Part shown: positions 3,770-20,219 of the stretch, in pieces
Numbering within the stretch: the stretch's first letter is position 1
Layout of the letters: the number at the start of each line of letters is the position of its first letter
Source: Nitrospirota bacterium
GTDB lineage: Bacteria; Nitrospirota; Nitrospiria; SBBL01; JAADHI01
Direction: 5' to 3'
Length of the DNA: 64,000 nucleotides
NCBI GenBank assembly: GCA_029261215.1
Contig: JAJDBT010000096.1
Location: 2,366 to 66,365 of the forward strand
Program-made: the position numbers and the translations under genes
The notes under the pieces: generated by a model
What the model saw: the letters and a program-made list of their open reading frames with translations, nothing else
What the model was told of the DNA's origin: nothing
Databases searched by the model: none

Positions 3770-4969
3770 ATGAGCCTTAATGGGCGGCTTGAAGATTTAG
3801 ATCTATCTGACATCTTCCAAATACTCAGTTTGAGTAAACGTTCCGGAGTCTTGACCATTATTCGGAGAGATACGACGGGACGTCTTGTTTTCAAAGAAGG
3901 ACTCTTGCTGTACGGCAGTTCAGATGGGGTCAATAAGATTGGGTACAACCTTGTAAAGAAAAAAATGCTCACCAATGATGAACTGGAAAAGGCCCTAGAA
4001 TCACAAAAAACCAGCGAAAAACAAATTCCTCTGGGATCAATATTATTAAAAACGGGCGCGATTTCAAAAGAAGATTTGCAGACAGAGTTAAAAAGCCATC
4101 TGACAGATGTCGTTAAAAATTTTCTGGGTTGGGAAACAGGGTCTTTTCATTTTAACGTTCAGGAAATTGCAGACCAGGACCCTTTATTTGATAAAGGGCT
4201 CAACCTTGATTTTGTACTGATGGAAGCCACGCGCCAACGAGATGAAGACGGACGCGCTCAAATTGAAGAAGAATCTCACCAGGATAACAAGCAAGAAGAA
4301 GACGAGGAAATTCAATTTGGGGATTTCCTGGAAGGGCCTCTTTTAAGTGAAGTTTTAAGCGTGTCATCAACAAACGGGTCGAACGCTCGTTCTGAAAGAA
4401 ATGAAGCGCATCAGGAGACATTGCTGGCGCAAGCGACTTCAACAAAAGGATCCGCTTTATTAACATCCATGATTGAAGAAATTTCCAGACCAGCGACAAC
4501 CGGCGAAATCACCCTCATGGTCATTCGATATGCAGCCGAAATTATGAATCGCGTCGTCATTTTTTTAGCAAAAAAAGACACTATTATCGGATCGGGCCAA
4601 TCCGGTTTTTCATTTAAGGAAGGATCCGCTGATCAAATCATACGTCAACTAAACATTTCACGTTCAAACCCTTCCCTCTTTCAAGAAGTCATCGAAAAAA
4701 GAACCTGTTATCGAGGGGAATTGCCCGATAACGCGCAGCATCAAAACTTCATCGCACATATAGGCGGACAGTGGCCTAAAGAGGTTTTTTTAGCCCCACT
4801 CTTTAAGGGAGAACAATTAAGTGCGTTTTTATACGGCGATAATCTGCCGGAGCAATCCCTGATAGGAGATACAGACGGCCTGGAAGCTTTCCTAAAAGTC
4901 GCAGGTTTCGCATTCGGAAAAGAAGGTGCCGTAAATGGACTTGTAAAAAATAATCAGGCCATGCAATGA
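3770..4969 (+). CDS. PATAN/DUF4388 domain protein with acidic linker and C-terminal GAF-like domain
   Basis: N-terminus GRLEDLDLSDIFQILSLSKRSGVLTI...GRLVFKEGLLLYGSS matches the DUF4388 (PatA N-terminal) signature. An acidic linker (EEESHQDNKQEEDEE) follows. The ~170-aa C-terminal domain is only tentatively GAF-like. Confidence 0.7.
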   Translation: MSLNGRLEDLDLSDIFQILSLSKRSGVLTIIRRDTTGRLVFKEGLLLYGSSDGVNKIGYNLVKKKMLTNDELEKALESQKTSEKQIPLGSILLKTGAISKEDLQTELKSHLTDVVKNFLGWETGSFHFNVQEIADQDPLFDKGLNLDFVLMEATRQRDEDGRAQIEEESHQDNKQEEDEEIQFGDFLEGPLLSEVLSVSSTNGSNARSERNEAHQETLLAQATSTKGSALLTSMIEEISRPATTGEITLMVIRYAAEIMNRVVIFLAKKDTIIGSGQSGFSFKEGSADQIIRQLNISRSNPSLFQEVIEKRTCYRGELPDNAQHQNFIAHIGGQWPKEVFLAPLFKGEQLSAFLYGDNLPEQSLIGDTDGLEAFLKVAGFAFGKEGAVNGLVKNNQAMQ

Positions 4970-5221
4970 AACAAACAACACCTGATTGGAATAAGCAGAT
5001 CGGACAAAAGGATCGCTTTAAAAGCATGAATAAACAGTTTAGAAAAATAGAACAAAGGGAGAGGACGCCTTAAGAATAAAGGCATAAATTGTGATCTAAA
5101 AATGATCAGGTATACTATAAATTGTGGGGAGATGCTCTTTAAGAAGGGTTCATACAACGATAAAAAAAGTTAGCCGAATCACAATGGGCGTCGGTGTGTT
5201 TCAGTTAAGGGAGAAATATTT

Positions 5222-5590
5222 ATGGATAAAAAAAGGATTTTACTTGTGGACGATTCTGAGACAATCCTCTTGTTTGAGAAGTTGATGCTTCAAAATGAAT
5301 ATAAAATTATTACGGCAAAAAATGGGAAATTAGGTCTTGAAACAGCGATTAAGGAAATACCCGACCTGATTGTGATGGACATCATGATGCCCGAGATGAA
5401 CGGGATAGAAGCCTTGCAGGCCATGCGTGCAGCACCCGAAACAAAAAACATTCCCATTATCATGGCGACAACAAAAAGTGAAAAAGAGAGAGTCGAAAGT
5501 TGTTACCAATATGGCTGTAATGACTACATCACCAAGCCGATAGACAAGATGGAATTGTTAACAAAAGTCCAAAAATATATCAACAACTAA
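5222..5590 (+). CDS. Single-domain CheY-like response regulator
   Basis: ILLVDDSE, the phosphoacceptor context DLIVMDIMMPEMNG, and IIMATTKS plus ITKP are all present, so every receiver signature residue is intact. Confidence 0.9.
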   Translation: MDKKRILLVDDSETILLFEKLMLQNEYKIITAKNGKLGLETAIKEIPDLIVMDIMMPEMNGIEALQAMRAAPETKNIPIIMATTKSEKERVESCYQYGCNDYITKPIDKMELLTKVQKYINN

Positions 5591-5636
5591 TGCTTAAACT
5601 TTTCCCGTTTTGTTATAAGTCAGAGAGGACCCTATA

Positions 5637-6443
5637 ATGGAGCACCAAACCGCAGATAAAAGTGATGTCCTGATAAAATTATTTGAAGAGGGAAAGCAGT
5701 TTTCCATGGATCTTCTCAAGGAAAACGAAAAACTTCGGCTCGCATTAGCCAAACTAAAAACAGACTCAAACCTTCTCAAAATGTCCTCCAATGAAGAAAA
5801 GCTCCACCAGGTTGAAAGTGAGAAAAACCAATATAAAGAGGAATTGGATCAACTCCGGAAAACCTTGCTGGAAATTGAGGATGAAAACAGCGAATTCGCA
5901 GAGAACTACATCAAAGTTGAAAACCAGAACCAAAACATGGCCAGCCTTTATGTCGCCAGTTACCGGCTCCACTCAACGCTGGATTTTACTGAAGTCATCG
6001 ATATTATTGAAGAAATTATCATTAACCTCATTGGATCAGAAAAATTTGGCATCTTTTTAAAAGATGAAAGAAGTAACGAGCTCTGTGCCATCGCAGGCGA
6101 AGGCGTAGAATATCGTAAAATTGAACCCATTAAAATTGGCGAAGGCGTCGCGGGTCAGGCTGCTGAAACAGGGGAAAGTTATATTACGGATAAAATCTCA
6201 AATAACCCAAGTGAACCTTTGGCCTGCATTCCACTCAAATTAAAAGATGATCTGATCGGAATGATCGTTGTATATGAACTCCTCCAGCAAAAAGATGGAT
6301 TTGAAGTCGTCGATCAAGAACTCTTTGCGCTACTGGCCGACCATGCAGCCACTGCGATATATAGCTCTCAACTGCATACCCAGTCTGAACGAAAACTCAA
6401 CACATTACAAAACATGCTCGACCTCCTAAGGGTAGATAAATAA
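5637..6443 (+). CDS. Coiled-coil plus GAF domain protein
   Basis: The N-terminal ~100 aa are heptad-like and Glu/Lys/Gln-rich. The C-terminal GAF-like core reads IGSEKFGIFLKDE...GEGVAGQAAETGESYI...ACIPLKLKDDLIGMIVVYEL. Confidence 0.7.
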   Translation: MEHQTADKSDVLIKLFEEGKQFSMDLLKENEKLRLALAKLKTDSNLLKMSSNEEKLHQVESEKNQYKEELDQLRKTLLEIEDENSEFAENYIKVENQNQNMASLYVASYRLHSTLDFTEVIDIIEEIIINLIGSEKFGIFLKDERSNELCAIAGEGVEYRKIEPIKIGEGVAGQAAETGESYITDKISNNPSEPLACIPLKLKDDLIGMIVVYELLQQKDGFEVVDQELFALLADHAATAIYSSQLHTQSERKLNTLQNMLDLLRVDK

Positions 6444-6445
6444 AT

Positions 6446-7648
6446 ATGGAATTTTCTGGAGAAATTGAAGACCTGCCTTTAATCGACCTGCTTCAGTACC
6501 TCTATGCAGGAAAAAAAACCGGCACGCTCATTTTAGGATTCATTGAGCAAAAATGGTATATCTATTTCCAAAATGGGGAGATTGTCTGGGCAAGTTCTCA
6601 ATCAAGCAAACAGATTGAAGAACTGCTGGTCGACTACAAACAAATTGACGTAAAAACACTTCACAAAACAAAAGCCCTTAAAGCTGAACATCAGGAACAA
6701 AGATCCATCTCGCAAATGCTCGTTGAAATGAAACTTCTTTCGGAAGACAGCCTGAAAAAAATCAAACAAGCAGAAATGAAACAACGAATGACTCGGCTCT
6801 CATTAAAGAACCGAGGCGAATTTTCATTTAAAAACAATGAACTCATTAACGAAGGAGAGGTCAAAATTGATCCCCTAGACCTTCTCCAGACGGGCGATGT
6901 GAACACACAACTTCTGCTTGAACAAATTCTTTCTGGATTGAAAGCAGATGAGCAGGAAAAACCTCAAATGCCAGAAAAGCACCCAGACACCCAAAGACAA
7001 AAAGAAACAGAAGAAACAGACAAACCACAAGAAAACCTGAAAGAGACCACCACAAAGCCCTTAGAAGCCGCCCATAGCGCCGAGGGACATCACTCAGGCG
7101 CCACACGTTCTAAAACGCATACAACATCCTCCGATCAACAATCTAAACACCCCAATATCGTGATATTACTAGTAGAAGACGGTATTTTGAAAAACCTTTT
7201 GCGAGAGGCGATTCAGAGTCCCGATATTGTGCTCATCACCCCTAGAACAGTTGAAGAGTGTCTTGAAAAAGTAGAACAAGCCCTCAGACAGGGCATTACT
7301 CCCCTTCTTTTGACAGACGATCGACTACCAGAAGTAAGACGATTTGGGCCGGCACTGGGCGACATTATCCTCAGTAAAAAGAAGAAACACGCGTGGTCCT
7401 GTCCTGTGGTCATTATGACAGAATCAAGTACACCCGAAATGGTCTGGAAATTTTATCAATCAGGAGCACGTGTTGTGCTACCCAAACCGGTCAGGCAAGA
7501 AAAAAAGGACTTTCTCTCAGGGATTACACTCTTTGGAAATGTCATGCGCTCTCTCGTCGCGCAAACCGCATCAGGAGATGCTCAGAACAATCAAGGCGTG
7601 CACGAAGCTCCTCTCAAAGAACAAAGAGTCGCCAATTCATTTAAATAA
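6446..7648 (+). CDS. PatA-like protein: PATAN/DUF4388 N-terminus, charged linker, C-terminal receiver-like domain
   Basis: N-terminus GEIEDLPLIDLLQYLYAGKKTGTLIL...IYFQNGEIVWASS is DUF4388-like. The C-terminus has ILLVED...LLLTDDRLPE...VVIMTESS...LPKP, so Asp, Thr and Lys receiver positions appear retained. It starts 2 nt after the upstream stop. Confidence 0.65.
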   Translation: MEFSGEIEDLPLIDLLQYLYAGKKTGTLILGFIEQKWYIYFQNGEIVWASSQSSKQIEELLVDYKQIDVKTLHKTKALKAEHQEQRSISQMLVEMKLLSEDSLKKIKQAEMKQRMTRLSLKNRGEFSFKNNELINEGEVKIDPLDLLQTGDVNTQLLLEQILSGLKADEQEKPQMPEKHPDTQRQKETEETDKPQENLKETTTKPLEAAHSAEGHHSGATRSKTHTTSSDQQSKHPNIVILLVEDGILKNLLREAIQSPDIVLITPRTVEECLEKVEQALRQGITPLLLTDDRLPEVRRFGPALGDIILSKKKKHAWSCPVVIMTESSTPEMVWKFYQSGARVVLPKPVRQEKKDFLSGITLFGNVMRSLVAQTASGDAQNNQGVHEAPLKEQRVANSFK

Positions 7649-7719
7649 AAAAACCATCACATTTTTGATATCCCCTTCTCTCGTTCTCTTTTGAAAAACA
7701 ATGACTGCCTGATATTGTT

Positions 7720-9222
7720 TTAGAGCGCTTCGAGTTGCTTGAGTTTTTTAAGGCACGTCTGGGAGAGGAGATCTGGGGGAAATTTCTCAGAAAAATCAGT
7801 GGGACCTTCAGGAAGATGTTCTAACAACTTGAGGGTGTTTTGGTAGGTTTTTCGTGCCAATGCAATCTGGTTCATCTGTCGATACACTTCACCCAGATAA
7901 AAGGTCGCAAGAATATTGCCAGAGTTGACATACAGTGTTCTTTGGAACATTTTAAGAGCACCTTCACAATCCCCGGTTCTATTTTTTAAAATCCCCATCA
8001 GGTAGTAGGCATCTTCTAAAAGACTGTCTTTTTCGAGGATTGTCTTGAGCATGGACATCGCTTCTTCATATTTACCCTGATTTGACAAAATGCGTGCATG
8101 CGCCACTTTGGCTTGATCAAAATATGGACTTTCGGACTTAAATTGAATCAGGATTGAGATCGCTGCTTCATATTTTTTAAATTGAGACAATTCCAGAGCC
8201 TGAGCAAAAGCCAGTCGATCCTCTTCCAGTACTATAGGGGAGCCTTGAGACATTTTTCGAATTCTTTGAGTGCTCATCAATGAATGACCGTTCCCTGATT
8301 TTTGAGCAGCGGGATCAGATGCCGGTTTTTCTGAAAGAGACATCCTATCGGAAGGCAGAACAAGGCCTCCTCCCTTGCGATAAAGAAATGTATCTGAAAA
8401 CTCGAGGGTCTGAAACAAATCTGAAATCTTCCACAATGTCTCTGAATGTCCTAAAAACAGATATCCACCCTCTTTTAAAGAACGATAATATTCATTCATA
8501 ATTCTCTGCGTGGTTTCTTGATTAAAATATATCGTCACATTTTTACAAAAGATGATATCCAGGTATTTCATTTGAGAGTGGTTAAAGGAGTCTACCGCGA
8601 GATTGTGTCGCTCGACCTTGACCATTTTCCTCATTTGATCAGATATTTCAACCTCATTTCCCCGTTCCTTAAAATATTTAATGCGATAATGTTCCGGGAT
8701 GGATTGCATAAATTTCTTATGATAAATACCCCGTTTCACGGATTCCAGCGCTCTACGGCTGATATCTGTCGCAAGAAGTGAAATATTCCATGACTTGAAT
8801 TCAGGAAGTAATTCAGACAAAAAAATGGCAATGGAGTAGATTTCCTGACCTGTTGAACAACCTGCTGACCAGACTCGAATCGATTTTCCTTCAGTCTGTT
8901 GCTTTTGTATGATTTCCGGAATCACCAGGCTTTTCAGGACATCAAACTGCGGTTTATTTCTAAAAAAAGAGGTTTCCTGAATGGTGAGTTCATCAATCAG
9001 ATCTTGTATTTCATGCGGTGCTTCCGGGTGATGTTTCAGAAAATGATAATAGGCCCCAAAGGAGTCTATTTCCCGATGTGTCATTCGCTCCACAAGGCCG
9101 GAGACAACCTGGTGTTTCCTTCTTTTTTCGTAATAAAGACCTGTATGATCAAGAAGCAGTTTTTGAAAGAGGATAAAGTCAGTGTCGGACATCTGACTTT
9201 TTTCATGATCTATGTAAGGCAT
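7720..9222 (-). CDS. cheR: CheR-type chemotaxis methyltransferase with C-terminal TPR repeats (FrzF-like architecture)
   Basis: TSFFRN, the SAM-binding IRVWSAGCSTGQEIYSIA and IIFCKNVTIYF motifs mark the CheR domain. About 170 aa of TPR-like repeats follow (YEEAMSMLKTILEKD..., ALKMFQRTLYVN...). Confidence 0.9.
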   Translation of the reverse strand: MPYIDHEKSQMSDTDFILFQKLLLDHTGLYYEKRRKHQVVSGLVERMTHREIDSFGAYYHFLKHHPEAPHEIQDLIDELTIQETSFFRNKPQFDVLKSLVIPEIIQKQQTEGKSIRVWSAGCSTGQEIYSIAIFLSELLPEFKSWNISLLATDISRRALESVKRGIYHKKFMQSIPEHYRIKYFKERGNEVEISDQMRKMVKVERHNLAVDSFNHSQMKYLDIIFCKNVTIYFNQETTQRIMNEYYRSLKEGGYLFLGHSETLWKISDLFQTLEFSDTFLYRKGGGLVLPSDRMSLSEKPASDPAAQKSGNGHSLMSTQRIRKMSQGSPIVLEEDRLAFAQALELSQFKKYEAAISILIQFKSESPYFDQAKVAHARILSNQGKYEEAMSMLKTILEKDSLLEDAYYLMGILKNRTGDCEGALKMFQRTLYVNSGNILATFYLGEVYRQMNQIALARKTYQNTLKLLEHLPEGPTDFSEKFPPDLLSQTCLKKLKQLEAL

Positions 9223-9255
9223 CTAATCTCTACAGTTTTTCATGAGGTCGCTTCA

Positions 9256-9780
9256 TTAAGGTGTCTGAATTGTGTCAGGCGCCTTCGATTGTTTTTTTTC
9301 ATCCAAGGGTTTAAAAAGATCCGTTTCATTTGATGTAAACACAGTGTCCAGATTAAGGAGAAATACAACACGCTTATCCCATTGCAGCACACCAGAAATA
9401 CAACGCTGCGGCACCTGAGTGGTAACAATCGCCGGTGTTGATTGAAGCAGTTCAGTAGAAAACTTCTTTACACCAAATACGCCATCCACGATCATCCCCA
9501 CAATCATGCGCTTCACACAAACCACCATGATTTTTTCTTTGTTGCTTCGTTCACAACTCGGCAGTCGGAAACGTTTTTTAGGGTCCATCACAGCCACCAC
9601 ATGACCCCGAATATCAATCACCCCTTCAATAAAATCCGGAGATTGGGGCATAGGGGAAATTTTTGTTAATCTCATGATTTCTCGTGCAGCCTGGACATCT
9701 ATAGCGTAGAGCTCGCCTGCAAGCTCAAAAACAACGACTGCGATCGTCTTATTGTTAACTAAAACCGCTTCCTCTAACAC
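9256..9780 (-). CDS. cheW: CheW coupling protein
   Basis: A single CheW-like domain (VVFELAGELYAIDVQAAREI...GVIDIRGHVVAVMD). It overlaps the cheB stop by 7 nt. Confidence 0.9.
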   Translation of the reverse strand: MLEEAVLVNNKTIAVVVFELAGELYAIDVQAAREIMRLTKISPMPQSPDFIEGVIDIRGHVVAVMDPKKRFRLPSCERSNKEKIMVVCVKRMIVGMIVDGVFGVKKFSTELLQSTPAIVTTQVPQRCISGVLQWDKRVVFLLNLDTVFTSNETDLFKPLDEKKQSKAPDTIQTP

Positions 9781-10853
9781 GAACCACCTCTTTTGAGAAG
9801 ACGTAGAATTTCAGATGAAATAGATTCTAAAGGGAGCACTCGATCAATCCGTGAAGTTTCAATTGCGGCTTTTGGCATACCAAAAATAGCCGAAGTCTCT
9901 TCGTCCTGGGCAATGGTTTTCCCCCCAGTCGTCTTAACATGCTCTATCCCAATCGCGCCATCTCTCCCCATTCCTGTCAAAATAATACCGATACAACCCT
10001 TGCCATAGTGTCTTGCTGCAGATTCCAATAAATAATCGCCACAAGGTCTCAGGCCATTTCGGGGCGGATCATCCATTAAATCGATCGTGTGGTTTTTAGA
10101 AACCTGCATGTGCGACCCTGTCGGCGCGATATAAGCGACTCCGGGAAGAATACTCTCCCCTTGCACCCCGGCTTTCACCTGGATTTCACAACTCGCTTGA
10201 AGCCAATTGACAAAATTATTCACAAAGCCCTGGGCAAGATGAATAACAATTACAATGCCGCAGGGGAATGATTTCGGTAAAGTACTTAGAATTTTACTAA
10301 TGGCTTTTGGGGAACCTGTCGATCCCACGAAGGCCACCAAACGCTCTGGATCTTCTTGAATCTTGACCCGCTCTAGACACTCAGACCGGCCCGATTCTGT
10401 TTTCTGAGAAAGTCTTGCCAAAGGGTGAGTAATGACCTTGACATTGGCAAGAAATTTCACCTTTTTTAGAAGCTCATCCGGGCCTGAAACACCGTTTCTC
10501 GATAAAAGGTCATCTTTGCTAAACACATCAAGCGCACCGTAGGAAATCGCTTTAAAAACCTTATCGCTTTGACTTGTAAAAGCAGAACTGCTGATCACGA
10601 GAATCGGCGTCGGTTGTCTTGCCATGAGTTGTTTTGTGACTTCAAGGCCATCCATCAAAGGGAGGTAAACATCCATCGTGATCAGATCCGGCTTTAAGCG
10701 TTGCGCAAGAGTGACCGCTTCCTCGCCATCTTTCGCAATACCGATCACGGTAATCGCCGGATCAGCCTCCAGAATTTTCTTGAGGGTAAGGGATGTGGTC
10801 GTCGAATCCTCAACAATCAAGACACGAATGTTTTTTTGTACTCTCCTGATCAT
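9774..10853 (-). CDS. cheB: CheB methylesterase with N-terminal receiver
   Basis: Receiver motifs VLIVEDS...DLITMDVYLPLMDG are followed by methylesterase motifs (GSTGSPKA, ILTGMGRDGA, AQDEETSAIFGMP). Confidence 0.9.
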   Translation of the reverse strand: MIRRVQKNIRVLIVEDSTTTSLTLKKILEADPAITVIGIAKDGEEAVTLAQRLKPDLITMDVYLPLMDGLEVTKQLMARQPTPILVISSSAFTSQSDKVFKAISYGALDVFSKDDLLSRNGVSGPDELLKKVKFLANVKVITHPLARLSQKTESGRSECLERVKIQEDPERLVAFVGSTGSPKAISKILSTLPKSFPCGIVIVIHLAQGFVNNFVNWLQASCEIQVKAGVQGESILPGVAYIAPTGSHMQVSKNHTIDLMDDPPRNGLRPCGDYLLESAARHYGKGCIGIILTGMGRDGAIGIEHVKTTGGKTIAQDEETSAIFGMPKAAIETSRIDRVLPLESISSEILRLLKRGGSC

Positions 10854-10900
10854 CTACACATCCTTGAAATACAATGTCTTTTAAAGGAACACACAGATCA

Positions 10901-13177
10901 TTAGGCAATGAGTCGTCCGATTGTTTCGATCAAATTACTTTGGTCAAAACTCCCTTTCGCAATATAGGCCTGAGCCCCAACTTCAATGCCGCGACGTTTT
11001 TCTTCTTCACTGCCGCGTGCTGTTACAAAAATAAGCGGAATATCACGGTAAGATTCATTGTCTTTTAGAAAATGGCACAGCTCTAGACCATTCATGCGTG
11101 GCATTTCGATATCACTGATAATCAGGTCATATTTATAAAGAGAGACTTTTTCAATCCCGTCAATCCCGTCGATTGCCGTATCTACTTCGTATCCTTCTCC
11201 TTCAAGAATAGGACGAATCAGCTCTCGTGTGGTCATTGAATCCTCGACAACCAACAATCTTCGTTTAGCCGCCATTTTCTCAATGGATTGTCCGCCGCCA
11301 TTCATCGGAACGCTCCCTTTTGACTGCTTTGATGAAACAACCAGATCAACAGGATCTAAAATAAGGACAATCTCCCCTGTTCTCAACATCGTCGCGCCAC
11401 TAATATTACGAAGCTTGCCAAGGTGAGCGCCAAGGTTTTTCAGATAAATTTCTTCTTTACCCAGTAATTGGTCTACCGAAAACCCGACTCGGCCATACAG
11501 AGAAGTGATGATCACAATCGTGACCTCGGCATTGCCCGATTTTTTGGACTCTTGAGAAGAAGGAATCCCGACCGTTTCATCAAGTGGCACAATCGGAACC
11601 ACACGATTTCGCAACTCAAATGCCATTTTGTTTTCAACACGATAAATTTCTCTAAGGGGAATCCGCGCAATCTCATCCACTGCAGAAAGCGGGATACCAA
11701 AAGTGCGCCCTCCGGCCTTTAACATCAAGGCTTGTATGATGGCAATGGTCAGAGGAAGCTCTAATAATAGTGTCGTCCCGACGCCTTTTTCCGATGAAAT
11801 CTCAACCTGGCCTTTGAGGTGTTCTATCTGCGTTCGGACAACATCCATCCCGACGCCTCGGCCGGAAATATCGGTGATAAACTGGCTGGTCGAGAACCCG
11901 CTCATAAAAACAAAGTTGAAAATTTCCTTATCACTCATTTTTTCTAAATCTTCTGAAGTCGCCATTTGTTTTTGAAGCACAACAGATTTAATCCGTTCCT
12001 TATCAAACCCGCGCCCATCATCCTGAATTTCGATCACAACATTTTCACCTTTGTGAAAGGCCGATAAGCGAATGGTGCAGGTTTCGGATTTATTTTGAGC
12101 ACGGCGTTCTTCCGGAGTTTCAAGACCATGATCAATGGCATTTCTTAGAATATGAATCAGCGGCTCTTTAATGCCTTCAAGGACTTTTTTATCTAACTCG
12201 GTCTCCTCCCCTTCAATTTTGAGGGTGACCTGTTTTCCTTGTTTTTGCGCGACATCCCGAACCAGTCTGGGAAAACTGGAAAAAATGGTGGAACAGGGGA
12301 GCATTCGAATCTCCCGGATATGCCGTTGAAGCTGATCCATAATAGGTTCGATATGCAGGGCTTCTCCGAGAACATCCTCGGAGACTCTCTCGACTTCTTC
12401 TTTAATCTTTCCAATTTCAGAAGTACATTCTTGAAGCGCCTCAATAAGGTCAGGAGGAATCGTCAACGTGTTTTGATTCTGCAACTGATCATTCAGCAAA
12501 CCCAAGCGCTTCTCCATCTGCTGGGCCATCATGCCGACTTTTTTAAAGGACCGTAACTTTTCTACAGATTTAATTTTGTTGATCACCAAGGCACCACCCA
12601 GATTGAGAATACTATCAATTCGACTGAGCGGCACACGGACAAATTCTTCTACAGTCGGAGCTGACGCCCGTTCTCCGTCTTCTTTTGGCTCTTCCTTATT
12701 TTTTTTCTTTGCCGGCTTAACGGTGGGCTTCGTTTCAGGGCTCACTTCTTTCTGAATATTGGAAACATCGTTTTCTTTTGGCTCAGGGGATGCCTTATCT
12801 TCTTCCTTCGTTTCAGAGAGCATCGGGAAGTTTTCATTCACACCTCCCCCTTTTGCAATTTCTGCCATCAAGTCTTTGATTTTATCCAGCCCGGAGAACA
12901 TTTTATCCGCCACGGAGGCATCAAAAGTAATCCGTCGATCTCGAATATCGGCGAGGATATCCTCAATTTGATGCGACATATCCCTGATTTCTGTAAACCC
13001 GACAGTTCCAGAAGCCCCTTTGAGGCTATGCGCTTCTCGAAAAAGTTTCTCAATAATCTGAAGGTCTTTTGGATCTTTCTCAAGAACCAGCACCCCTTCA
13101 TTTAGGTTCTCAATATGCTCTTCAGCCTCAGCGATAAAAACACCCAGAATTTCGGATAAATCAAACGGAAGACTCAT
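10901..13177 (-). CDS. cheA: Hybrid CheA histidine kinase with C-terminal receiver (FrzE-like)
   Basis: Hpt domain with REAHSLKGASG, a K/E/P-rich linker, HATPase motifs (NAIDHGLE, DDGRGFD, GRGVGMDVV), a CheW-like domain, then a REC domain (LLVVEDSMTTRE...DLIISDIEMPRMNG...AKG). Confidence 0.92.
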   Translation of the reverse strand: MSLPFDLSEILGVFIAEAEEHIENLNEGVLVLEKDPKDLQIIEKLFREAHSLKGASGTVGFTEIRDMSHQIEDILADIRDRRITFDASVADKMFSGLDKIKDLMAEIAKGGGVNENFPMLSETKEEDKASPEPKENDVSNIQKEVSPETKPTVKPAKKKNKEEPKEDGERASAPTVEEFVRVPLSRIDSILNLGGALVINKIKSVEKLRSFKKVGMMAQQMEKRLGLLNDQLQNQNTLTIPPDLIEALQECTSEIGKIKEEVERVSEDVLGEALHIEPIMDQLQRHIREIRMLPCSTIFSSFPRLVRDVAQKQGKQVTLKIEGEETELDKKVLEGIKEPLIHILRNAIDHGLETPEERRAQNKSETCTIRLSAFHKGENVVIEIQDDGRGFDKERIKSVVLQKQMATSEDLEKMSDKEIFNFVFMSGFSTSQFITDISGRGVGMDVVRTQIEHLKGQVEISSEKGVGTTLLLELPLTIAIIQALMLKAGGRTFGIPLSAVDEIARIPLREIYRVENKMAFELRNRVVPIVPLDETVGIPSSQESKKSGNAEVTIVIITSLYGRVGFSVDQLLGKEEIYLKNLGAHLGKLRNISGATMLRTGEIVLILDPVDLVVSSKQSKGSVPMNGGGQSIEKMAAKRRLLVVEDSMTTRELIRPILEGEGYEVDTAIDGIDGIEKVSLYKYDLIISDIEMPRMNGLELCHFLKDNESYRDIPLIFVTARGSEEEKRRGIEVGAQAYIAKGSFDQSNLIETIGRLIA

Positions 13178-13464
13178 ATGATGCTCGTTGTTGAGGAAAT
13201 ATTATTCAAAGCGGCCCATTCCAAAATCTTCCTGCCCCAGACAAAAACCACTGATGTCGTTTTGAAGTGATCTTAAGCGCTCTTTAAATGTCACCGCGCT
13301 CGAAATGCTTAACTCAGTCCTTTTCGTAAAAGCGGTCATGCTTCTATCGATATAAAAATGGTATCAAGCCTATAGGGCCTGGCACGGATTCCGTGTAAAA
13401 CGGCATGCAGATCAATGAACGATTTATGCGAAATGCTTCAAATGAGGAGAGATTCATCTTTTTC

Positions 13465-14013
13465 TCATCTTATCGCAGATGATTTGTCCTCATGTTGATA
13501 TTTCGTTTTTGTAATAATGTTTTCGATATCTAAAATGGTCACCAGCTGGCCTTGGCGCATAAATTCCCCCTTCAAATAGTGTGCTCTTTCTGTAGAAAGT
13601 GTACTCAAGGGTGGATCAATCTGATGATTCGCGACATCAAGCACTTGAGAGACCTCATCGACCAATAAGCCGGTCTCAACTTTTTTCTCGGAAATCACAA
13701 CAATGCGCGTTTTCCCACTATGCGGAACCCACTCTAAACCAAAAAGATTTTTAGGATCCGTGACAGAAATAATTTCTCCTCGAAGGTTTGTGATCCCTGC
13801 AATATAGGCTGGTGCGCCAGGAAGGATGGTGAGTTGAGAGGCTGGAATGACTTCAATGATTTTATGAATTTCTGCGGCATACCATTCATTACTGATTCTG
13901 AAACAAACCACTTGAATACCGACCTCTTTCGTTTTGTACGCTTTTTCATAAAAATCAATATCTTCACTCAAAATGGCCGGATCATGACTTTCTGTGGTGT
14001 CTTCTATACTCAT
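13465..14013 (-). CDS. cheW: CheW coupling protein (second copy)
   Basis: CheW-like domain VVCFRISNEWYAAEIHKIIEV...GITNLRGEIISVTD. It is the first gene of the che operon on the minus strand. Confidence 0.85.
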   Translation of the reverse strand: MSIEDTTESHDPAILSEDIDFYEKAYKTKEVGIQVVCFRISNEWYAAEIHKIIEVIPASQLTILPGAPAYIAGITNLRGEIISVTDPKNLFGLEWVPHSGKTRIVVISEKKVETGLLVDEVSQVLDVANHQIDPPLSTLSTERAHYLKGEFMRQGQLVTILDIENIITKTKYQHEDKSSAIR

Positions 14014-14254
14014 CTGTTTTTAAAAACCTTTTCCCTAATCATGATCGACTTTAAATACCAGGTTTTTTAATAAATCAACCACATCCATTCCCGCGAACAA
14101 CCTGAGCAAAACGTATATTTTAACCCTGCGTCTAAAGGACGTTCCAAACTCAAATATATCAGATCCTTTTTGCTTGTCACTTATTTGCGGTCAGGTTTTT
14201 TCCAGTGTGCCATTCTGAACAATCGATTATCCAGACATCAAACAGATCGTGCTT

Positions 14255-14851
14255 TCAATCCTCAATCTCAGGTCTTTCCACTTCCTTTTCTTTTTCGTGC
14301 TGTGCGAGTAAAATCTGACGTTCCCTTTTGATCACATAACGAAAGATCGTTTCTTGGTCCAAGACTTTTACGTTCGTAAATTCAACGCCTAAGTCAAACT
14401 TTGCAGGAAGAGACTTGTGGCTCTCTTTTTGTCTTGACCGGCAAACAACTCCATCGATCACCATCTCATTAAATGGCAATACAGGCAGGAAAAATCTCAC
14501 CTGGATTTTTGAACCCAGGGCCATCTGTTCATGGCTGGAAAACCTCGCCCCGCTTGCACTCAAATCGACCACCTCAGCTTCATAAGGGAATTCCGGGGCA
14601 TCCTTATCCTTTATCAGTGTTTTAATGAGATAATTCACTTTCCAATCCAGCCAGAGCAACAGTTCCAGGTGCAGTTTGTCATTCTCATTGCCCGCCGCCC
14701 GAATTTTTGTTGCAATATCAGAGATTTCATTTGAAGAAATCGGATCATAGCGCTCTGGCATTAAGTGGGTATTCGCTGCATTATCTACGATTCTAAATGA
14801 GACCATACATTCTGCACTCACCCTTACAAACTTTCTGCGCTCTTCACTCAC
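14255..14851 (-). CDS. PilZ domain c-di-GMP receptor
   Basis: The N-terminal RRKFVR (RxxxR) motif and DLSASGARF (D/NxSxxG) motif are both present. Confidence 0.8.
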   Translation of the reverse strand: MSEERRKFVRVSAECMVSFRIVDNAANTHLMPERYDPISSNEISDIATKIRAAGNENDKLHLELLLWLDWKVNYLIKTLIKDKDAPEFPYEAEVVDLSASGARFSSHEQMALGSKIQVRFFLPVLPFNEMVIDGVVCRSRQKESHKSLPAKFDLGVEFTNVKVLDQETIFRYVIKRERQILLAQHEKEKEVERPEIED

Positions 14852-14906
14852 TTCCGCCTCCTGGTAAAAATCATTAAACCGAGAAATGCTGACTTAAACG
14901 AAACAT

Positions 14907-16430
14907 CTACCCAACCCGCCGTTCCCCTAAAATCAAAACATCAGGTTTTCTGGAAATGGATTCCTCTTCTTTGGCGCTTACAATACAGTTTCTTCCCGTT
15001 TTTTTTGCGCGATAAAGCGCTTGATCTGCTGCGTTAAAAAGGCATTCGGGGGTTTGAATATCGGATGAAGGATAATGGGCGATTCCGATGCTTACGGTTA
15101 TCGGGATCTCTAAATCGTCCGTACAGATTTTTTTTCGCTCAACTTTCTTTTTAATTCGATTTGCAACGATTAATCCTTCCTCCAGGTTTGTTCCTGGAAG
15201 AATCACGACAAATTCTTCTCCGCCATATCGTATTAAAACATCAATATCTCTAATACTTGACTTGAAGATAGAAGCCGTTTCGCAGAGAACCTGATCCCCG
15301 GTCAGATGCCCATAGGTATCATTCACTTTTTTAAAATGATCAAGGTCAATGACCATGATCGTGAGCGACGTATTGTAGCGATTTGCCCTTCTAAATTCCC
15401 TTTCCAATATTCCTGAAAATGACCTTCGATTTAAAATGTCTGTCAAAGGATCCTTAATGGATAAATCCTCCACCTGTTTGTACATTTCAGCATTTCGAAT
15501 GGAAATCGCTAAAGGCACTGAAATCATAGACAACAACTTCGCCTGGTATTCGCTAAATGATCCATAGGATTTTCTAGGGCTTACGGTGACACGGGTGATG
15601 GTATTTTCACTGTGCCGATAAGACATTCGCATCAAGCGTAACAATCCGATTTTACTTGCTCCCACCGAGAGCAAGACCATAATTTCAGAACCACCGTGGC
15701 AAACAGTCGCCTGTGGAACTGTCGAATGATTTTCAATCAATTTCAGAGCGTCTTCCCGGGTTTCATCTTTCACTTGTTCAAGAATATCTCCCCACACCTT
15801 CAGATCCGCTTCAACGCGGACCTGATCCCAGCCCTTCAGGTAAAGACAAGAAATATCGTGAGGCACCACTTTTTGAATATTTGTAAACAAGGACTTTACA
15901 ATCTCCTCAATATGAAGGGATTCACTGAGTGTCTGGTTCAGCTCGTATAAGGCACTCAAGTCCGTGTTCCATTTTTTGAGTTGATCACGCTCCCCGGAAA
16001 GGGATTGATTCGCTTCTTCCAGCTGACTTGATAGATTCAAAATATTAAGCAGGTTTTCACGATTTTTAAGACCTTTTCGCATTGTTTTTAACAAGCGATG
16101 ATACGGAAAAGGCGTCTTCAGATAATCAAAAACACCTCCTCGTAAAAGCGCACTGACTTTCCCTGAATCAAGTTCAGGCCCCATCATCAGGACACAGGCC
16201 GTCGATTGTGCTTGCTGAAGCAGTTTAAGAAATTTAAAAATTCTGAAATAAGGGAAATTGGCCTCAATTAAAACGATGTCAGACTTTTCAAAATAGATCA
16301 GTGATTGATTGATCCTGATCCGGTCTCCTCTTTTTTTAAAAAATGCCTTTAATTCATCGTGATTGTTCGGGTTCATGCTATAAAAAGCGATTTCTATTCC
16401 TTTAGGACGATTCAACTGAACCTGTTTCAT
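14907..16430 (-). CDS. Diguanylate cyclase: degenerate receiver, GAF-like region, GGDEF domain
   Basis: RYGGEEFVVILPG active site with an RDID I-site (RxxD) exactly 5 residues upstream. The N-terminal receiver-like fold has Glu at the acceptor position (DIVLIEANFP). I start at ATG 16430, preceded by GGGAG; the track's GTG 16442 lies inside that Shine-Dalgarno. Confidence 0.85.
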   Translation of the reverse strand: MKQVQLNRPKGIEIAFYSMNPNNHDELKAFFKKRGDRIRINQSLIYFEKSDIVLIEANFPYFRIFKFLKLLQQAQSTACVLMMGPELDSGKVSALLRGGVFDYLKTPFPYHRLLKTMRKGLKNRENLLNILNLSSQLEEANQSLSGERDQLKKWNTDLSALYELNQTLSESLHIEEIVKSLFTNIQKVVPHDISCLYLKGWDQVRVEADLKVWGDILEQVKDETREDALKLIENHSTVPQATVCHGGSEIMVLLSVGASKIGLLRLMRMSYRHSENTITRVTVSPRKSYGSFSEYQAKLLSMISVPLAISIRNAEMYKQVEDLSIKDPLTDILNRRSFSGILEREFRRANRYNTSLTIMVIDLDHFKKVNDTYGHLTGDQVLCETASIFKSSIRDIDVLIRYGGEEFVVILPGTNLEEGLIVANRIKKKVERKKICTDDLEIPITVSIGIAHYPSSDIQTPECLFNAADQALYRAKKTGRNCIVSAKEEESISRKPDVLILGERRVG

Positions 16431-16549
16431 AATATCTCCCACTGAATCAATGTCTGCTCACAGTCTGTTTTTTTTCGAGTGTTCATTTAAGATGAAAATG
16501 GATTGAGAAGAATATTGGAGTATAAATAGAATCATAGTTTAGTAAAGTA

Positions 16550-16564
16550 GCAATTAGTATGCCA
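16550..16564 (-). promoter_or_regulatory. Candidate sigma-54 (-24/-12) promoter upstream of the diguanylate cyclase
   Basis: The minus strand reads TGGCATACTAATTGC(T), against the consensus TGGCACG-N4-TTGCW. GG-to-GC spacing is correct and the element lies ~110-135 nt upstream of ATG 16430. Confidence 0.5.
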
Positions 16565-16613
16565 TGTTCATTCTAGTCACGGACTAAGAGCATGAACGAC
16601 GAAACGAAACATG

Positions 16614-17210
16614 CTACTCGTGCTCATAAACAGATTTTCCCGGACGACCATACACTTTAATCAGTTGCGTTCTGAGGTTTTGAATCATTTCCAGACTACG
16701 TGTATCAGGATCTGAAGTCGTTTTATTTTCTTGAGATACTAGCTCCTTTTCCTTGCAGATAATTTGAAGTTTTTCTAATAAGTCATTGTTTTCCCTTATT
16801 AGTTTTATTCTATCGACTGCATTTTTGATGACAATATACAGCTCATCTAACTGGAAAGGTTTTGTAAGGTAGTCATAGGCTCCTTCTCGTATTGCATGAA
16901 TAGCAGATTGTAAGGATGCATACCCTGTGATCAAAATGACGAGCGTTTCGGGAGATTGTATTTTTATTTTCTTTAAGAGCTTGATCCCGCTTAAACCGGG
17001 CATTTTCAAATCGCTTAATACTAATTCAAAATGTTTATTGTCAAATATTTGACAAGCTTCCTCTCCACTTTTGGCAATGGTGACCTGATAACCCTGATCC
17101 AGAAGCGCCTCTTTCAAAAGTTCTCTGGGTCCGCGTTCGTCATCGACGACAAGAATCTCAAAAATATCGCCTTTGTTAACAGGTCTTTGATTTTGTGTCA
17201 CATGACTCAT
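16614..17210 (-). CDS. Response regulator with short C-terminal coiled-coil and no recognisable output domain
   Basis: ILVVDDERG...ELVLSDLKMPGLSG...VILITGYAS...LTKPF form an intact receiver. A ~70-aa helical tail follows. Confidence 0.85.
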   Translation of the reverse strand: MSHVTQNQRPVNKGDIFEILVVDDERGPRELLKEALLDQGYQVTIAKSGEEACQIFDNKHFELVLSDLKMPGLSGIKLLKKIKIQSPETLVILITGYASLQSAIHAIREGAYDYLTKPFQLDELYIVIKNAVDRIKLIRENNDLLEKLQIICKEKELVSQENKTTSDPDTRSLEMIQNLRTQLIKVYGRPGKSVYEHE

Positions 17211-17410
17211 GATTCTAGTTGTTCCGGCTTTACATTTTGATGGAGATCGGCATGTAATCGTTTGATCGATTCTGGCGATAAGGTGACCCCGTCAGATAGG
17301 TCCTTTTTTTCTTCAACAGAATCTGTCTTCGTTTCTTCCAGGTCCAATTTTTTAATGACCTGCTTGTATGTTCTTAAAACATGATGAACCTGATTGGCTT
17401 TAATCTCCAT
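17207..17410 (-). CDS. Small hypothetical protein (67 aa) translationally coupled to the response regulator
   Basis: Its TGA stop overlaps the downstream regulator's ATG (ATGA, 17207-17210). The protein is charged and helical, with only a faint FlgM-like flavour (VTLSPESIKRL). No family assigned. Confidence 0.4.
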   Translation of the reverse strand: MEIKANQVHHVLRTYKQVIKKLDLEETKTDSVEEKKDLSDGVTLSPESIKRLHADLHQNVKPEQLES

Positions 17411-17708
17411 TCATTCCCTTTCGATAAAAAAACCTTCCTTTCTCTATCGGCAGAATTAAAGTTAAACTTAAGGCCTGAAATAAAAATTGAGACGCCTATT
17501 ACATTTTTATCAGATAGCCATTACAATACAGGCCAAGATAGATCTGCCTTCAAGGCATTCATAAGGACAGGGTATTAGACACAAAAATAAGTGCTCTGAG
17601 GAAACCATCGAACCTTCAAAGCGCCCCAAGTGTTCAGAATAAAAGCAAAAATCAGCCACGGCTTAAGCATGTCAATCGGGGGCACTCCAAGGCCACAAAG
17701 GAGAATCA

Positions 17709-18617
17709 TTGCAAAAAGCTTCTTTTAAATGTACGCCAGACTTCACCAAACAGATTCTTCAAGGTGAGATCCGCGCCACCTCCAGACTGCTTACCCTGAT
17801 AGAACAAAGAAACCCTCTCGCCCTCCCCTGTCTAAAAGACTTATATCCTCATACAGGCCATGCAAGACTCATCGGCATTACCGGGCCCGCCGGTACGGGA
17901 AAAAGCACCCTGATCAATCGCTTGATCACAAGCTTCCGAAAAAAGAGAAAAAAAATTGGCGTTCTGGCCGTGGACCCGACCAGTCCATTTTCAGGTGGCG
18001 CCATTTTGGGGGATCGACTCAGAATGCATCCTCATTTTCTAGACAGAGACGTTTTTATCCGAAGCCTCGCAACGCAAGGAAGTCTGGGAGGAATCAGCCC
18101 TGCACTTTTTGACGCCATTCATGTCCTTGATGCGATGGGGAAAGACATCATTTTCATTGAAACAATCGGTGTTGGGCAAGATGAAGTCTATATTGCCAAT
18201 CTAGCAGAAACCCTCCTGCTTGTCTTAACACCAGGCATGGGAGATATCGTTCAAACAATGAAATCGGGTTTACTTGAGATTGGCGACATCATCGTAGTCA
18301 ACAAGGGAGACCTCCTGGATGGATTTCAATTGATACAAGAGTTAGAAGAAATAAGAGGGAAGCGCCCCGTTATGCAAGTTTCAGCAGAAAAGGAAACAGG
18401 GATAAAAGATCTTATTTCTAAATTAGAAGGCAGGATGAATAAAAAGCGGGATGTTTACTCTAAAAAAGAAACCTTTGTACGAGAAGAACTGCAATGGCTC
18501 CTTTATGAAAAACGCCTTGCGGACAGAACGGGGTTTCCATTTAAAGATAGTGTTATCAAACAAATTCTACGCCGAGAAGTGACGCCCTATGACACGGTCG
18601 AAGATTGGAGTGAATAA
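17709..18617 (+). CDS. meaB: MeaB/ArgK-type G3E GTPase
   Basis: P-loop GITGPAGTGKSTLI, plus AVDPTSPFSGGAILGDRLRM, ETIGVGQDE and VVNKGD motifs. TTG start per the ORF track. Confidence 0.85.
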   Translation: MQKASFKCTPDFTKQILQGEIRATSRLLTLIEQRNPLALPCLKDLYPHTGHARLIGITGPAGTGKSTLINRLITSFRKKRKKIGVLAVDPTSPFSGGAILGDRLRMHPHFLDRDVFIRSLATQGSLGGISPALFDAIHVLDAMGKDIIFIETIGVGQDEVYIANLAETLLLVLTPGMGDIVQTMKSGLLEIGDIIVVNKGDLLDGFQLIQELEEIRGKRPVMQVSAEKETGIKDLISKLEGRMNKKRDVYSKKETFVREELQWLLYEKRLADRTGFPFKDSVIKQILRREVTPYDTVEDWSE

Positions 18618-18618
18618 A

Positions 18619-19206
18619 CTAGGCTTTTTTCTTTAGTTCCATAATGACCAGCTTGGCAACATCTTTCAGCGTTTCAAAAACGCCCTCGCCTTTTGCTGCA
18701 GATGCTTCGAAAGAAGGGACTTTTCGTGGATTTAAAGCTTCTTCCATTTCTTTTAAGGGGACAACATTGGCGAGATCCCGTTTGTTGTACTGAACAACAT
18801 AGGGCAGCTCTTCCAAATTAAAACCATGGTCGTTTAAATTTTTCACCAGGTTGTCCATACTTTCCAAATTTGCTTCCATACGCTCAACTTGAGAGTCTGC
18901 AACAAAAATAACACCATCGACACCCCTCAAGATGAGTTTTCTACTGGCATCGTAAAATATCTGGCCAGGAACAGTGTAAAGGTGAAATCGAACCTTAAAA
19001 CCTTTAATGCTACCCAATGCCAAGGGAAGAAAATCGAAAAAAAGTGTCCGCTCAGATTCCGTTGCGAGCGAGATCATTTTTCCTTTACTATCTGGATTAA
19101 TTTTTTTGTAGATATATTGCAGGTTTGAGGTTTTTCCACAAAGGCCAGGACCGTAATACACAATTTTGCAGCTAATTTCACGGGCAGAGTAATTTATAAA
19201 AGACAT
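18619..19206 (-). CDS. mglA: Ras-like GTPase MglA
   Basis: [33 protein letters not shown] and the MglA-specific switch [33 protein letters not shown], plus NKRDL. Confidence 0.92.
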
Positions 19207-19291
19207 TATTTATACCTTTAGAGAAATCGTCGATTCATTACAATGATTCAACTGGCAGGAAACAAAGCATAAAAGAAGCAAACCCCAAATT

Positions 19292-19783
19292 TCAACCAAA
19301 CAGGCTTTCAATATCTTCTTCAGTAATTTCTTTAAATGGAGATCCAGCAACCTGATTCGCATCGGTCTTTGTCATTTTTTCAGTTAACTTATCAAAAACC
19401 TCTGTCAGGGCAGCGACACTCCGTTTTACTCTTAATCGAATAAGACCCAGGGAAGAGCGATCATCAAAAACGACAACGAGAATTGCACGATGCCCCACCA
19501 AGGAGATATGAATATTGTCGCGTTCTCCCTCATGAAACAAGATCGAAAACTCTTTTTCACCCAAGAGCTGCGCCATTCCTCCCGTCGCAGCAATATTCCC
19601 GGCGGTTAAAGAGGCAAGAGAAGTCGTATCGATATCGCCGGTTTCTCCAATACTCGCAATTAATTGTCCGTCTTTATCAACCAAAAAGGATACTTTGGCT
19701 CGGGAAAGCTGATTAAGCTTAAGCAACTCTTTATCAATCAGCCTTGACTCTTCTTCAAATAACACTAAGCCGGGATTTAACAT
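19292..19783 (-). CDS. mglB: Roadblock/LC7 protein MglB (MglA GAP)
   Basis: Roadblock-fold signature VSFLVDKDGQLIASIGETGDIDTTSLASLTAGNIAATGGMA, positioned immediately upstream of mglA. Confidence 0.85.
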   Translation of the reverse strand: MLNPGLVLFEEESRLIDKELLKLNQLSRAKVSFLVDKDGQLIASIGETGDIDTTSLASLTAGNIAATGGMAQLLGEKEFSILFHEGERDNIHISLVGHRAILVVVFDDRSSLGLIRLRVKRSVAALTEVFDKLTEKMTKTDANQVAGSPFKEITEEDIESLFG

Positions 19784-19879
19784 TCCTCATCTAGCCCTAA
19801 GAAAGCTTTACGTTTGACGTTTTATTTATACCACCAGAACGGAAGTTCCGCAAATGGGCGACTGATCTGACAGAGAAAT

Positions 19880-20119
19880 CTATTCCAGCATTTCATCTAA
19901 CATTTGTGATCCATCCATCCTTTCAATAAAATGCTGCGCCCAGGTGAGGTAAAGACGGCCCGCATCTTTCATTGCAAGCACACCATGTTCCAAGCTTTTG
20001 ATATCCCCCTCATCAACACCCTCTTTAGCAAGGGAAATGAGTCTTGACTCAAAAACATGATTTAATTTTTCCATCGATTCAAGAACACCCGCCAATGATT
20101 TTTCAATATTGTCTTCCAT
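19880..20119 (-). CDS. Hypothetical 79-aa acidic helical protein, first gene of the apparent mglBA transcription unit
   Basis: The ORF lies between the oxidoreductase operon terminator (20161-20193) and mglB, on the same strand. No recognisable domain. Confidence 0.45.
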   Translation of the reverse strand: MEDNIEKSLAGVLESMEKLNHVFESRLISLAKEGVDEGDIKSLEHGVLAMKDAGRLYLTWAQHFIERMDGSQMLDEMLE

Positions 20120-20193: not shown

Positions 20194-20219
20194 CAGAACA
20201 GTTCAAAACTACATGGGCT

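Follow-up and report, generated by a model that had tools for sequence, protein, structure and literature searches.

Gene content of the che operon and its receptor slot

The DNA analysed here is a stretch of 64,000 nt from a Nitrospirota bacterium (contig JAJDBT010000096.1; the whole stretch is called the window and all positions refer to it), and the subject of this study is a chemosensory (che) operon lying with other signalling genes between positions 3770 and 20119, in which an intact gene for a methyl-accepting chemotaxis protein (MCP) is missing. The gene inventory was obtained from a listing of the open reading frames (ORFs) and from Pfam scans, and the interpretations were drawn from comparisons of sequence and synteny with relatives and homologues, whose loci are designated by L-numbers. 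The operon is encoded on the minus strand and starts with a first cheW copy (13465..14013; PF01584, 113 bits), followed by the genes for a hybrid CheA (10901..13177) comprising Hpt, H-kinase_dim, HATPase_c, CheW and Response_reg domains, with H50 in an HSLKG motif, for CheB (9774..10853; receiver plus methylesterase, with the GSTG serine motif), for a second CheW (9256..9780; PF01584, 107 bits) and for a CheR (7720..9222; CheR, 196 bits, and CheR_N) with C-terminal tetratricopeptide repeats (TPR), matched by several TPR families at residues 333-470. Four plus-strand genes converge on it. They encode a PATAN (DUF4388) protein of 399 residues (3770..4969; PF14332, 90 bits), a CheY-like single-domain receiver (5222..5590; PF00072, 92 bits), a coiled-coil-GAF protein, here termed ccGAF (5637..6443; GAF_2, GAF_3 and GAF matches), and a PATAN-receiver (PATAN-REC, PatA-type) response regulator (6446..7648; PF14332, 66 bits) with a divergent receiver that scored 28.4 bits against PF00072 (cutoff 30.2).

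All the genes listed in an earlier note on this DNA were found in their places with the domains ascribed to them by Pfam, except for the label "GAF-like" given to the C-terminal half of the first PATAN protein, which had no Pfam match at E<=1 and reached a probability of 0.19% in hhalign against the ccGAF profile. The same note had stated that no methyl-accepting chemoreceptor is encoded in the window, and this held for intact genes. The MCP signalling domain was not detected in the six frames of the whole 64 kb with Tsr, the MCPs of two relatives or a profile of 8 MCP sequences as queries, nor was an MCP found in Pfam scans of the remaining large ORFs of the window; the sensitivity of the profile can be judged from a 57-residue MCP tail in L006, which it recovered at E=4.7e-14. 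The window contains, however, a degenerate 3' remnant of an MCP gene (13202..13363, minus strand; 53 codons plus stop), recognised by its alignment to the MCP tails of relatives, its colinearity and its position. A dCache_1-HisKA-HATPase sensor kinase is encoded at 38920-40725 on the minus strand, and its dCache_1 sensor region accounts for a weak similarity of this ORF to the N-terminus of the dCache MCP of the relatives.

The nature of the remnant became apparent from the related operons. The closest CheA homologue, 78% identical, is that of a relative represented by two assemblies (L002 and L003; GCA_945787655.1 and GCA_945786955.1), followed by L006 (68%; GCA_029261135.1), by the more distant operon L004 (56%, or 55-58% in other alignments) and by an Omnitrophota homologue, L008 (45%). 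The synteny of L002 and L003 is the same as that of the window, with ligA-PATAN-CheY-GAF-PATAN convergent on cheR-cheW-cheB-cheA, and in both of them the slot between cheW and cheA is occupied by a gene for a dCache_1-HAMP-MCPsignal protein of 638 residues. The L006 contig stops 199 nt upstream of cheA and these 199 nt encode an intact MCP C-terminus, and an MCP gene directly upstream of cheA was also found in L004 and L008, whose operons have the same order.

In the window, the interval between cheW and cheA measures only 288 nt. An open frame of 53 codons in this interval (13205-13363, minus strand) matches the last ~45 residues of the relatives' MCPs, the local BLOSUM62 score being 59 with the MCP tail of L002, 50 with that of L004 and 56 with that of L006, against ~20 +/- 4 for shuffled sequences; the score of the remnant was reached by none of 2000 shuffles for each of the three tails and by 1 of 2000 for the full-length L004 MCP. 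The DNA alignment of the remnant with these tails was colinear, at 44-51% identity (58-60% among the intact tails themselves), and the distance from the stop codon to the cheA start is 24 nt in the window and 23 nt in L002 and L006. At the amino-acid level the identity was ~31% (13 of 42 aligned residues, counted by eye), compared with 48-88% for the intact neighbouring genes. Because the relatives have an MCP gene in the cheW-cheA slot and the window has in its place a colinear degenerate remnant with matching spacing to cheA, we conclude that ~1.75 kb of a dCache_1-HAMP-MCP gene has probably been deleted in this lineage and that the leftover has decayed. A cognate Frz-class MCP encoded elsewhere and co-varying with the operon had been named beforehand as a finding that would speak against a receptor-less system; the relatives do have a cognate MCP, located in the operon itself and of the dCache_1-HAMP type rather than the cytoplasmic Frz type, but none is encoded in the 64 kb.

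In order to know how common such an arrangement is, we sampled 80 diverse CheA loci among the matches listed in a profile search of genome contigs with the CheA alignment. Their identities to the window CheA were at most 46%, with most full-length matches at or below 37%, and close relatives were not among the matches listed. An MCP was absent within 10 kb in 8 of the 24 listed che loci that were at least 20 kb long and had both CheR and CheB, and in 13 of 39 when every listed locus with CheR and CheB was counted; that is, receptor-less che clusters have a high base rate, about one third of the sampled loci.

All nine genes of the che/PATAN block are intact, complete ORFs with their key motifs present. 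Compared with L002, the best conserved product was CheY (88% identity), the first PATAN protein was 64-66% identical, and the most diverged were CheR (54-56%) and PATAN-REC (48-49%). Relative rates were compared in three taxa, the window, L002 and L006, using the identity of the first two to the third: LigA gave 71.0% for the window and 68.2% for L002, CheA 71.0 and 69.3%, CheB 62.6% in both cases, CheR 52.2 and 48.3%, and CheW 57.1 and 59.5%, a difference within 2.4 points. The window lineage is thus not accelerated after the loss of the receptor, and the intact state of the genes together with this lack of acceleration favours continued function, so that the che pathway is most likely still used. 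That the operon is instead a relic, non-functional since the MCP was lost and simply not yet degraded, seems unlikely. The MCP is gone, with its remnant worn down to the identity given above, and the divergence of CheR and PATAN-REC from L002 would agree with decay; but the nine ORFs retain their catalytic motifs, CheR shares in the absence of acceleration, and it is just as divergent between the two MCP-bearing relatives (48.3%).

Conserved modules beside the che genes and the PATAN proteins

The che genes are followed upstream by an operon of four minus-strand genes. The last of these encodes a predicted PilZ receptor for cyclic di-GMP (c-di-GMP) (14255..14851; PF07238, with RRKFVR and DLSASG motifs), preceded by a diguanylate cyclase (14907..16442) in which a degenerate receiver and a middle region precede the GGDEF domain (PF00990, 169 bits; GGEEF A-site and RDID I-site), by a response regulator (RR) of 198 residues (16614..17210; PF00072, 103 bits) with a C-terminal helical tail after its receiver and, heading the operon, by an ORF of 67 codons (17207..17410), which is a gene call in L001. 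This small ORF extends into the beginning of the response regulator gene and its N-terminus, M.I.A.Q...VLRT, is conserved in L089, L092 and L093; no family match was obtained for it. The receiver of the cyclase scored 15.6 bits over the N-terminal ~130 residues, and inspection by eye showed Glu in place of the acceptor residue (DIVLIE) and no N-terminal acidic pair, which suggests a pseudo-receiver; some of its homologues are annotated as REC and/or GAF plus GGDEF. The concatenated RR, GGDEF and PilZ proteins are 54-63% identical across related uncultured genomes.

Beyond this operon there is a metabolic GTPase gene of the MeaB/ArgK type on the plus strand (17709..18617; PF03308, 229 bits) and then, on the minus strand, mglA (18619..19206), mglB (19292..19783) and an ORF for a helical protein of 79 residues (19880..20119). 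The Ras-like MglA has Arf and Ras matches, the GPGLCGKT P-loop and the TVPGQ switch-2 signature, it is 83-94% identical in the relatives, and its Roadblock partner is adjacent: MglB matched PF03259 (Robl_LC7) with 58.6 bits and the NCBIfam MglB model with 83 bits (equivalog cutoff 200). The 79-residue ORF had no family match in Pfam or NCBIfam; its orthologues stand in the same position in the relatives, 49-72% identical, and its product could be an uncharacterised partner of MglA/MglB. The genes for pyruvate:ferredoxin oxidoreductase (POR) come next, and a terminator-like hairpin (20169..20194, minus strand; consensus match only) separates the POR/ferredoxin genes from the 79aa-mglB-mglA unit. 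Scans for promoters and terminators stayed at chance level except for this one good hairpin upstream of the 79-residue ORF. The four blocks into which the region had been divided before (plus-strand cassette, che operon, small ORF-RR-GGDEF-PilZ, and 79-residue ORF-mglB-mglA) do exist, but the division left out MeaB, whose gene separates mglA from the RR-GGDEF-PilZ block. By Pfam, the remaining large ORFs of the 64 kb were assigned to metabolism, transport, the dCache histidine kinase and a chaperone-usher pilus cluster, the latter at 52437-59840 on the minus strand with usher, PapD-like chaperone and small subunit-sized ORFs, beside a sigma-54 activator and with no visible link to the che genes.

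Related contigs were traced through orthologues of the GGDEF protein, 50-70% identical, some of them source-named Nitrospiria or Nitrospirota. The order in L092 is POR-ferredoxin-79aa-mglB-mglA, then MeaB-acyl-CoA dehydrogenase-OB_ChsH2 on the opposite strand, then 68aa-RR-GGDEF-PilZ and finally ligA in convergent orientation, with pilZ directly abutting ligA and no che or PATAN genes between them. The RR-GGDEF-PilZ/ligA junction of L089 is identical, and there mglBA is not found at that place; L093 retains the backbone likewise, and L090 and L091 retain it as far as PilZ, where the contigs end (the assembly of L091 is also that of the 78% relative). In the window, ligA, the NAD-dependent DNA ligase gene recognised by Pfam (1347..3473, plus strand), is the backbone gene on the other flank, and the che/PATAN block of ~10.8 kb (~3474-14254) is either there or missing as a whole between ligA and pilZ. 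As the related genomes keep the backbone without it, the block is a separable unit. In the unrooted LigA tree a single split separated block-bearing from block-less genomes, which one gain or one loss of the block would explain. The polarity implied by regarding the block as an insertion was withdrawn, given that the tree shows only this one unrooted split, and a search for repeats, tRNA genes and signs of mobile elements at the flanks of the block gave nothing meaningful.

The 78% relative was assembled twice independently, and in both assemblies the contigs are interrupted in the interval from pilZ to the first cheW, where L002 and L003 start and L090 and L091 end; the border of the block may thus be a variable junction or one that is hard to assemble. 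On the other side of the c-di-GMP operon, mglBA is set apart from it by an opposite-strand metabolic operon, of which only MeaB is found in the window. The relatives have acyl-CoA dehydrogenase and OB_ChsH2 beside MeaB and the window has a gap of ~300 nt (17411-17708), which is therefore a second local gene loss.

The first PATAN protein has an alpha-helical insert at residues 56-110 with two tandem MshEN-like motifs, KIGYNLVKKKMLTNDELEKALESQ and LGSILLKTGAISKEDLQTELKSH. The consensus of the tandem MshEN motif is RLGxx(L/V/I)(L/V/I)xxG(L/V/I)(L/V/I)xxxxLxxxLxxQ. Against the NCBIfam model for this c-di-GMP motif (NF053729) the protein scored 37 bits, the cutoff being 38, and binding of c-di-GMP is uncertain because neither motif has the lead Arg, one having Lys and the other Pro at this position. 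A single-sequence AlphaFold model of the protein reached a pLDDT of 35 and was unusable for the fold of the C-terminal half. The second PATAN protein has the PatA-type arrangement, with an N-terminal PATAN domain, a C-terminal receiver just below the cutoff and CheY encoded two genes upstream. PatA-type PATAN-REC regulators are encoded beside CheY in cyanobacterial Tax systems, where they bind the pilus motor ATPase PilB1, and PATAN genes regularly have mglA and mglB in their vicinity (bioRxiv 10.1101/2021.06.11.447907). In L047, from a metagenome-assembled genome (MAG) of Verrucomicrobiota, positions 1-14820 hold mglB-mglA, CheY-MCP-CheR-CheA-CheB and a PATAN protein gene within 15 kb. A grouping of che, PATAN and mglBA genes, there including an MCP, thus recurs in another phylum.

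The earlier note had joined all these genes into one signalling supercluster. In an integrated system of this kind, Frz- or Wsp-like, the output of the Che proteins would modulate c-di-GMP through the response regulator and the GGDEF protein, and polarity through MglA/MglB. Such a system is quite unlikely here, even though MglA and MglB have been reported near PATAN genes, mglBA, a che operon with MCP and PATAN share 20 kb of L047, the just-subthreshold MshEN-like motif of the first PATAN protein lies next to a GGDEF/PilZ operon, and the output of Wsp is itself a REC-GGDEF protein (PMC3447774). The backbone synteny survives without che or PATAN genes, an opposite-strand metabolic operon runs between mglBA and the c-di-GMP operon, the cyclase receiver has the low score and the acceptor-position Glu described above, and the lead Arg of both MshEN-like repeats has been replaced. 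Conservation of the neighbourhood was found in one respect, the same block synteny being present in L002 and L003, but not in the other, the che/PATAN block being missing where the rest is kept. Since related genomes maintain the same module order although pilZ and ligA have no che or PATAN genes between them, the presence of mglBA and RR-GGDEF-PilZ beside the che genes appears to be a juxtaposition, a chance adjacency, and the notion of a single supercluster is not supported, the backbone modules being conserved independently of the block (L089 and L092).

The coiled-coil-GAF family

Members of the ccGAF family gave 4860 matches at E<=1e-5, ~50% identical and uniform in length (~270 residues), with source names that include Nitrospirota, Thermoanaerobaculia and "Deltaproteobacteria". 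The AlphaFold (AF2) model of the window protein (pLDDT 81) consists of one helix of ~105 residues leading into a canonical GAF domain, its best Foldseek match was the Lcd1 cAMP-GAF, the top structural matches were cyclic-nucleotide-type GAF domains, and sequence matches to solved structures also pointed to this type. A cryptic MCP in ccGAF was considered and rejected: hhalign against an MCP alignment gave a probability of 0.15%, no Pfam MCPsignal match was found, and the model is a single helix plus GAF.

Genomic contexts of the family were drawn from loci L094, L095, L096, L051 and L097-L176. Among the 48 metagenome loci with sequence on both sides, ccGAF immediately adjoins CheY in 43 and CheB in 39, and in the 18 loci with at least 8 kb on each side the usual order was (CheA-CheW-MCP-CheW-)CheR-CheB-ccGAF-CheY, with MCPs detected in 10 of them. 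One of the contexts, from Thermoanaerobaculia (L095, positions 1-12672), reads PATAN-CheY-CheA-AAA22-CheW-REC-HEAT repeat-CheR-CheB-ccGAF-CheY-487aa, and neither Pfam annotation nor the MCP profile detected an MCP within 10 kb of its ccGAF. In L006 (5785-7736) the ccGAF and PATAN-REC genes are each split into two ORFs, either by pseudogenisation or by frameshift errors in the MAG.

Judged by its neighbours, ccGAF seems to be an accessory protein that partners CheY on the output/adaptation side rather than a substitute for the MCP. Neither the family nor a GAF accessory protein of che clusters was found described in a few literature searches, none of which targeted the family specifically; the ccGAF-CheY pair may therefore, provisionally, be regarded as a widespread and apparently undescribed che accessory module across several phyla, and we consider this more likely than a receptor-independent kinase array.

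The latter was the reading of the earlier note, in which a kinase array without any MCP would take its input from ccGAF and/or the PATAN proteins and send its output to MglA/MglB polarity and c-di-GMP. We regard it as very improbable, and the same applies to a receptor-independent array in which the CheA/CheW core would have been kept by selection after the loss of the MCP through a ligand-sensing ccGAF or a c-di-GMP-sensing PATAN protein, which we would hardly expect. There is no MCP in the window, yet the che genes are intact and under similar constraint, and some ccGAF che clusters have no MCP within 10 kb (L095 and 8 of the 18 well-flanked metagenome loci). Nevertheless, the nearest relatives hold the same cassette plus an in-operon MCP, ccGAF has no homology to MCPs and is modelled without a hairpin bundle, its position is on the output/adaptation side in clusters of which more than half contain MCPs, and mglBA and RR-GGDEF-PilZ are conserved without che genes. 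Because the relatives carry both and the window keeps an MCP remnant, the PATAN and GAF proteins coexist with an MCP and do not replace it. The description of the locus as an undescribed signalling architecture was consequently not upheld: in the relatives the same cassette accompanies an MCP encoded in the operon, and the adjacency to mglBA and c-di-GMP genes is a juxtaposition.

Interpretation and likeness to known systems

Taken together, these comparisons make it probable that the locus is a mosaic of four independent modules, one of them an ACF-type (alternative-function) che unit that has lost its in-operon MCP, and not one integrated system. Module A (~3474-14254) would consist of cheW-(mcp deleted)-cheA(REC)-cheB-cheW-cheR(TPR) and the convergent cassette of PATAN, CheY, ccGAF and PATAN-REC. 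Its ancestral form would have had a dCache_1-HAMP-MCP gene between cheW and cheA, as the closest relatives still have, and a deletion of ~1.75 kb in this lineage would have left the ~53 decayed 3' codons. The pathway would now receive its input from one or more MCPs encoded elsewhere in the genome, CheA would phosphorylate CheB, CheY and the PATAN-REC regulator, and the PATAN proteins would probably act on a motility or polarity target, by analogy with the PatA-type proteins that act on cyanobacterial PilB. Modules B (67aa-RR-GGDEF-PilZ), C (MeaB) and D (79aa-mglB-mglA) would be the conserved backbone, which is found without module A in related genomes. That the missing MCP is merely an assembly artefact or a minority strain variant is scarcely credible, for although the sequence is metagenome-derived and the contigs of relatives break near the region, the same set and arrangement of proteins was obtained in the Logan assembly (SRR15505519) and in the NCBI MAG contig of 102 kb, and what the gap holds is a diverged remnant, not intact MCP ends joined cleanly.

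Several points weigh against the mosaic interpretation. The blind profile search scored the MCP remnant weakly (E=1.3), its significance coming from the targeted shuffle test, the position and the colinearity. The LigA tree, being unrooted, is compatible with a gain as well as with a loss of the block, and the ACF label is derived from domain architecture. The feeding of the pathway by MCPs encoded elsewhere is presumed from a search confined to the 64-kb window, and no type IV pilus or flagellar genes to which the output might be anchored were found by Pfam in these 64 kb.

A chemosensory kinase array without chemoreceptors, hard-wired to a polarity GTPase and to c-di-GMP, is what the earlier note would have implied if true. 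The evidence points instead to the routine loss of one receptor gene and to the chance adjacency of modules, which removes most of the surprise. The locus offers a clear case from nature of a che operon remaining intact once its in-operon receptor was lost, and the ccGAF family stands out as a concrete candidate for an accessory component new to chemosensory pathways. The near-threshold MshEN-like c-di-GMP motif of the PATAN protein is a further useful by-product.

A fusion of CheR to TPR marks the ACF-type pathways, among them Wsp and Frz (PMC3447774), and a CheA with a C-terminal receiver, which also occurs in classes F3, F5 and Tfp, is not diagnostic alone (PMC10782961). We found both in the window, CheR being fused to TPR and the CheA core (dimerisation, HATPase and CheW domains) being followed by a C-terminal receiver, and from this architecture the operon is best called ACF-type. 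It shares with Wsp of Pseudomonas and Frz of Myxococcus the C-terminal receiver of CheA, the CheR-TPR, two cheW genes and CheB, and the ACF order with an MCP gene directly upstream of cheA is conserved in the relatives of the window; in the window itself, in contrast, the operon's own MCP would have been deleted.

The likeness to Frz that had been proposed for the operon extends to the CheA-REC, the CheR-TPR and the two CheW, which are common to Frz and Wsp, but not to a FrzCD-type receptor, a FrzZ or a che-specific mglBA linkage. The MCP of the relatives has a dCache_1 sensor and HAMP, whereas FrzCD is cytoplasmic; instead of a FrzZ-type dual receiver with tandem REC domains, the receivers are a single CheY, PATAN-REC, the 198-residue response regulator, CheB and CheA-REC; and mglBA has the same position in genomes without che genes between pilZ and ligA (L092, the backbone being present also in L093). 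For these reasons the operon does not appear to be specifically Frz-like. Nor does it seem clearly Wsp-like, given that no WspR-type REC-GGDEF is encoded inside it and that the GGDEF protein of the window, located ~0.9 kb from cheW, has a degenerate receiver and belongs to a separately conserved four-gene operon.

The cassette resembles the cyanobacterial Tax/Pix systems in having PATAN-REC and a single-domain CheY beside a che operon with a hybrid CheA. It differs from them in that the window organism is outside the cyanobacteria, the CheR-TPR is ACF-type and not of the Tfp class, an additional PATAN protein stands alone, ccGAF is encoded between CheY and PATAN-REC, whose receiver does not reach the Pfam threshold, and no pilB or pilus genes are nearby. 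The c-di-GMP genes agree with known GGDEF/PilZ pairs in the GGEEF active site, the RxxD I-site and the RxxxR and DxSxxG motifs of PilZ, but they form a fixed four-gene operon of small ORF, response regulator, putative pseudo-receiver cyclase and PilZ. Finally, the MglA/MglB module is like those of Myxococcus, Thermus and Bdellovibrio in the TVPGQ of MglA, the Roadblock MglB encoded just upstream and the high conservation, whereas it differs in following a pyruvate:ferredoxin oxidoreductase operon, in being preceded by the 79-residue ORF and in having a position that is conserved with or without che genes.

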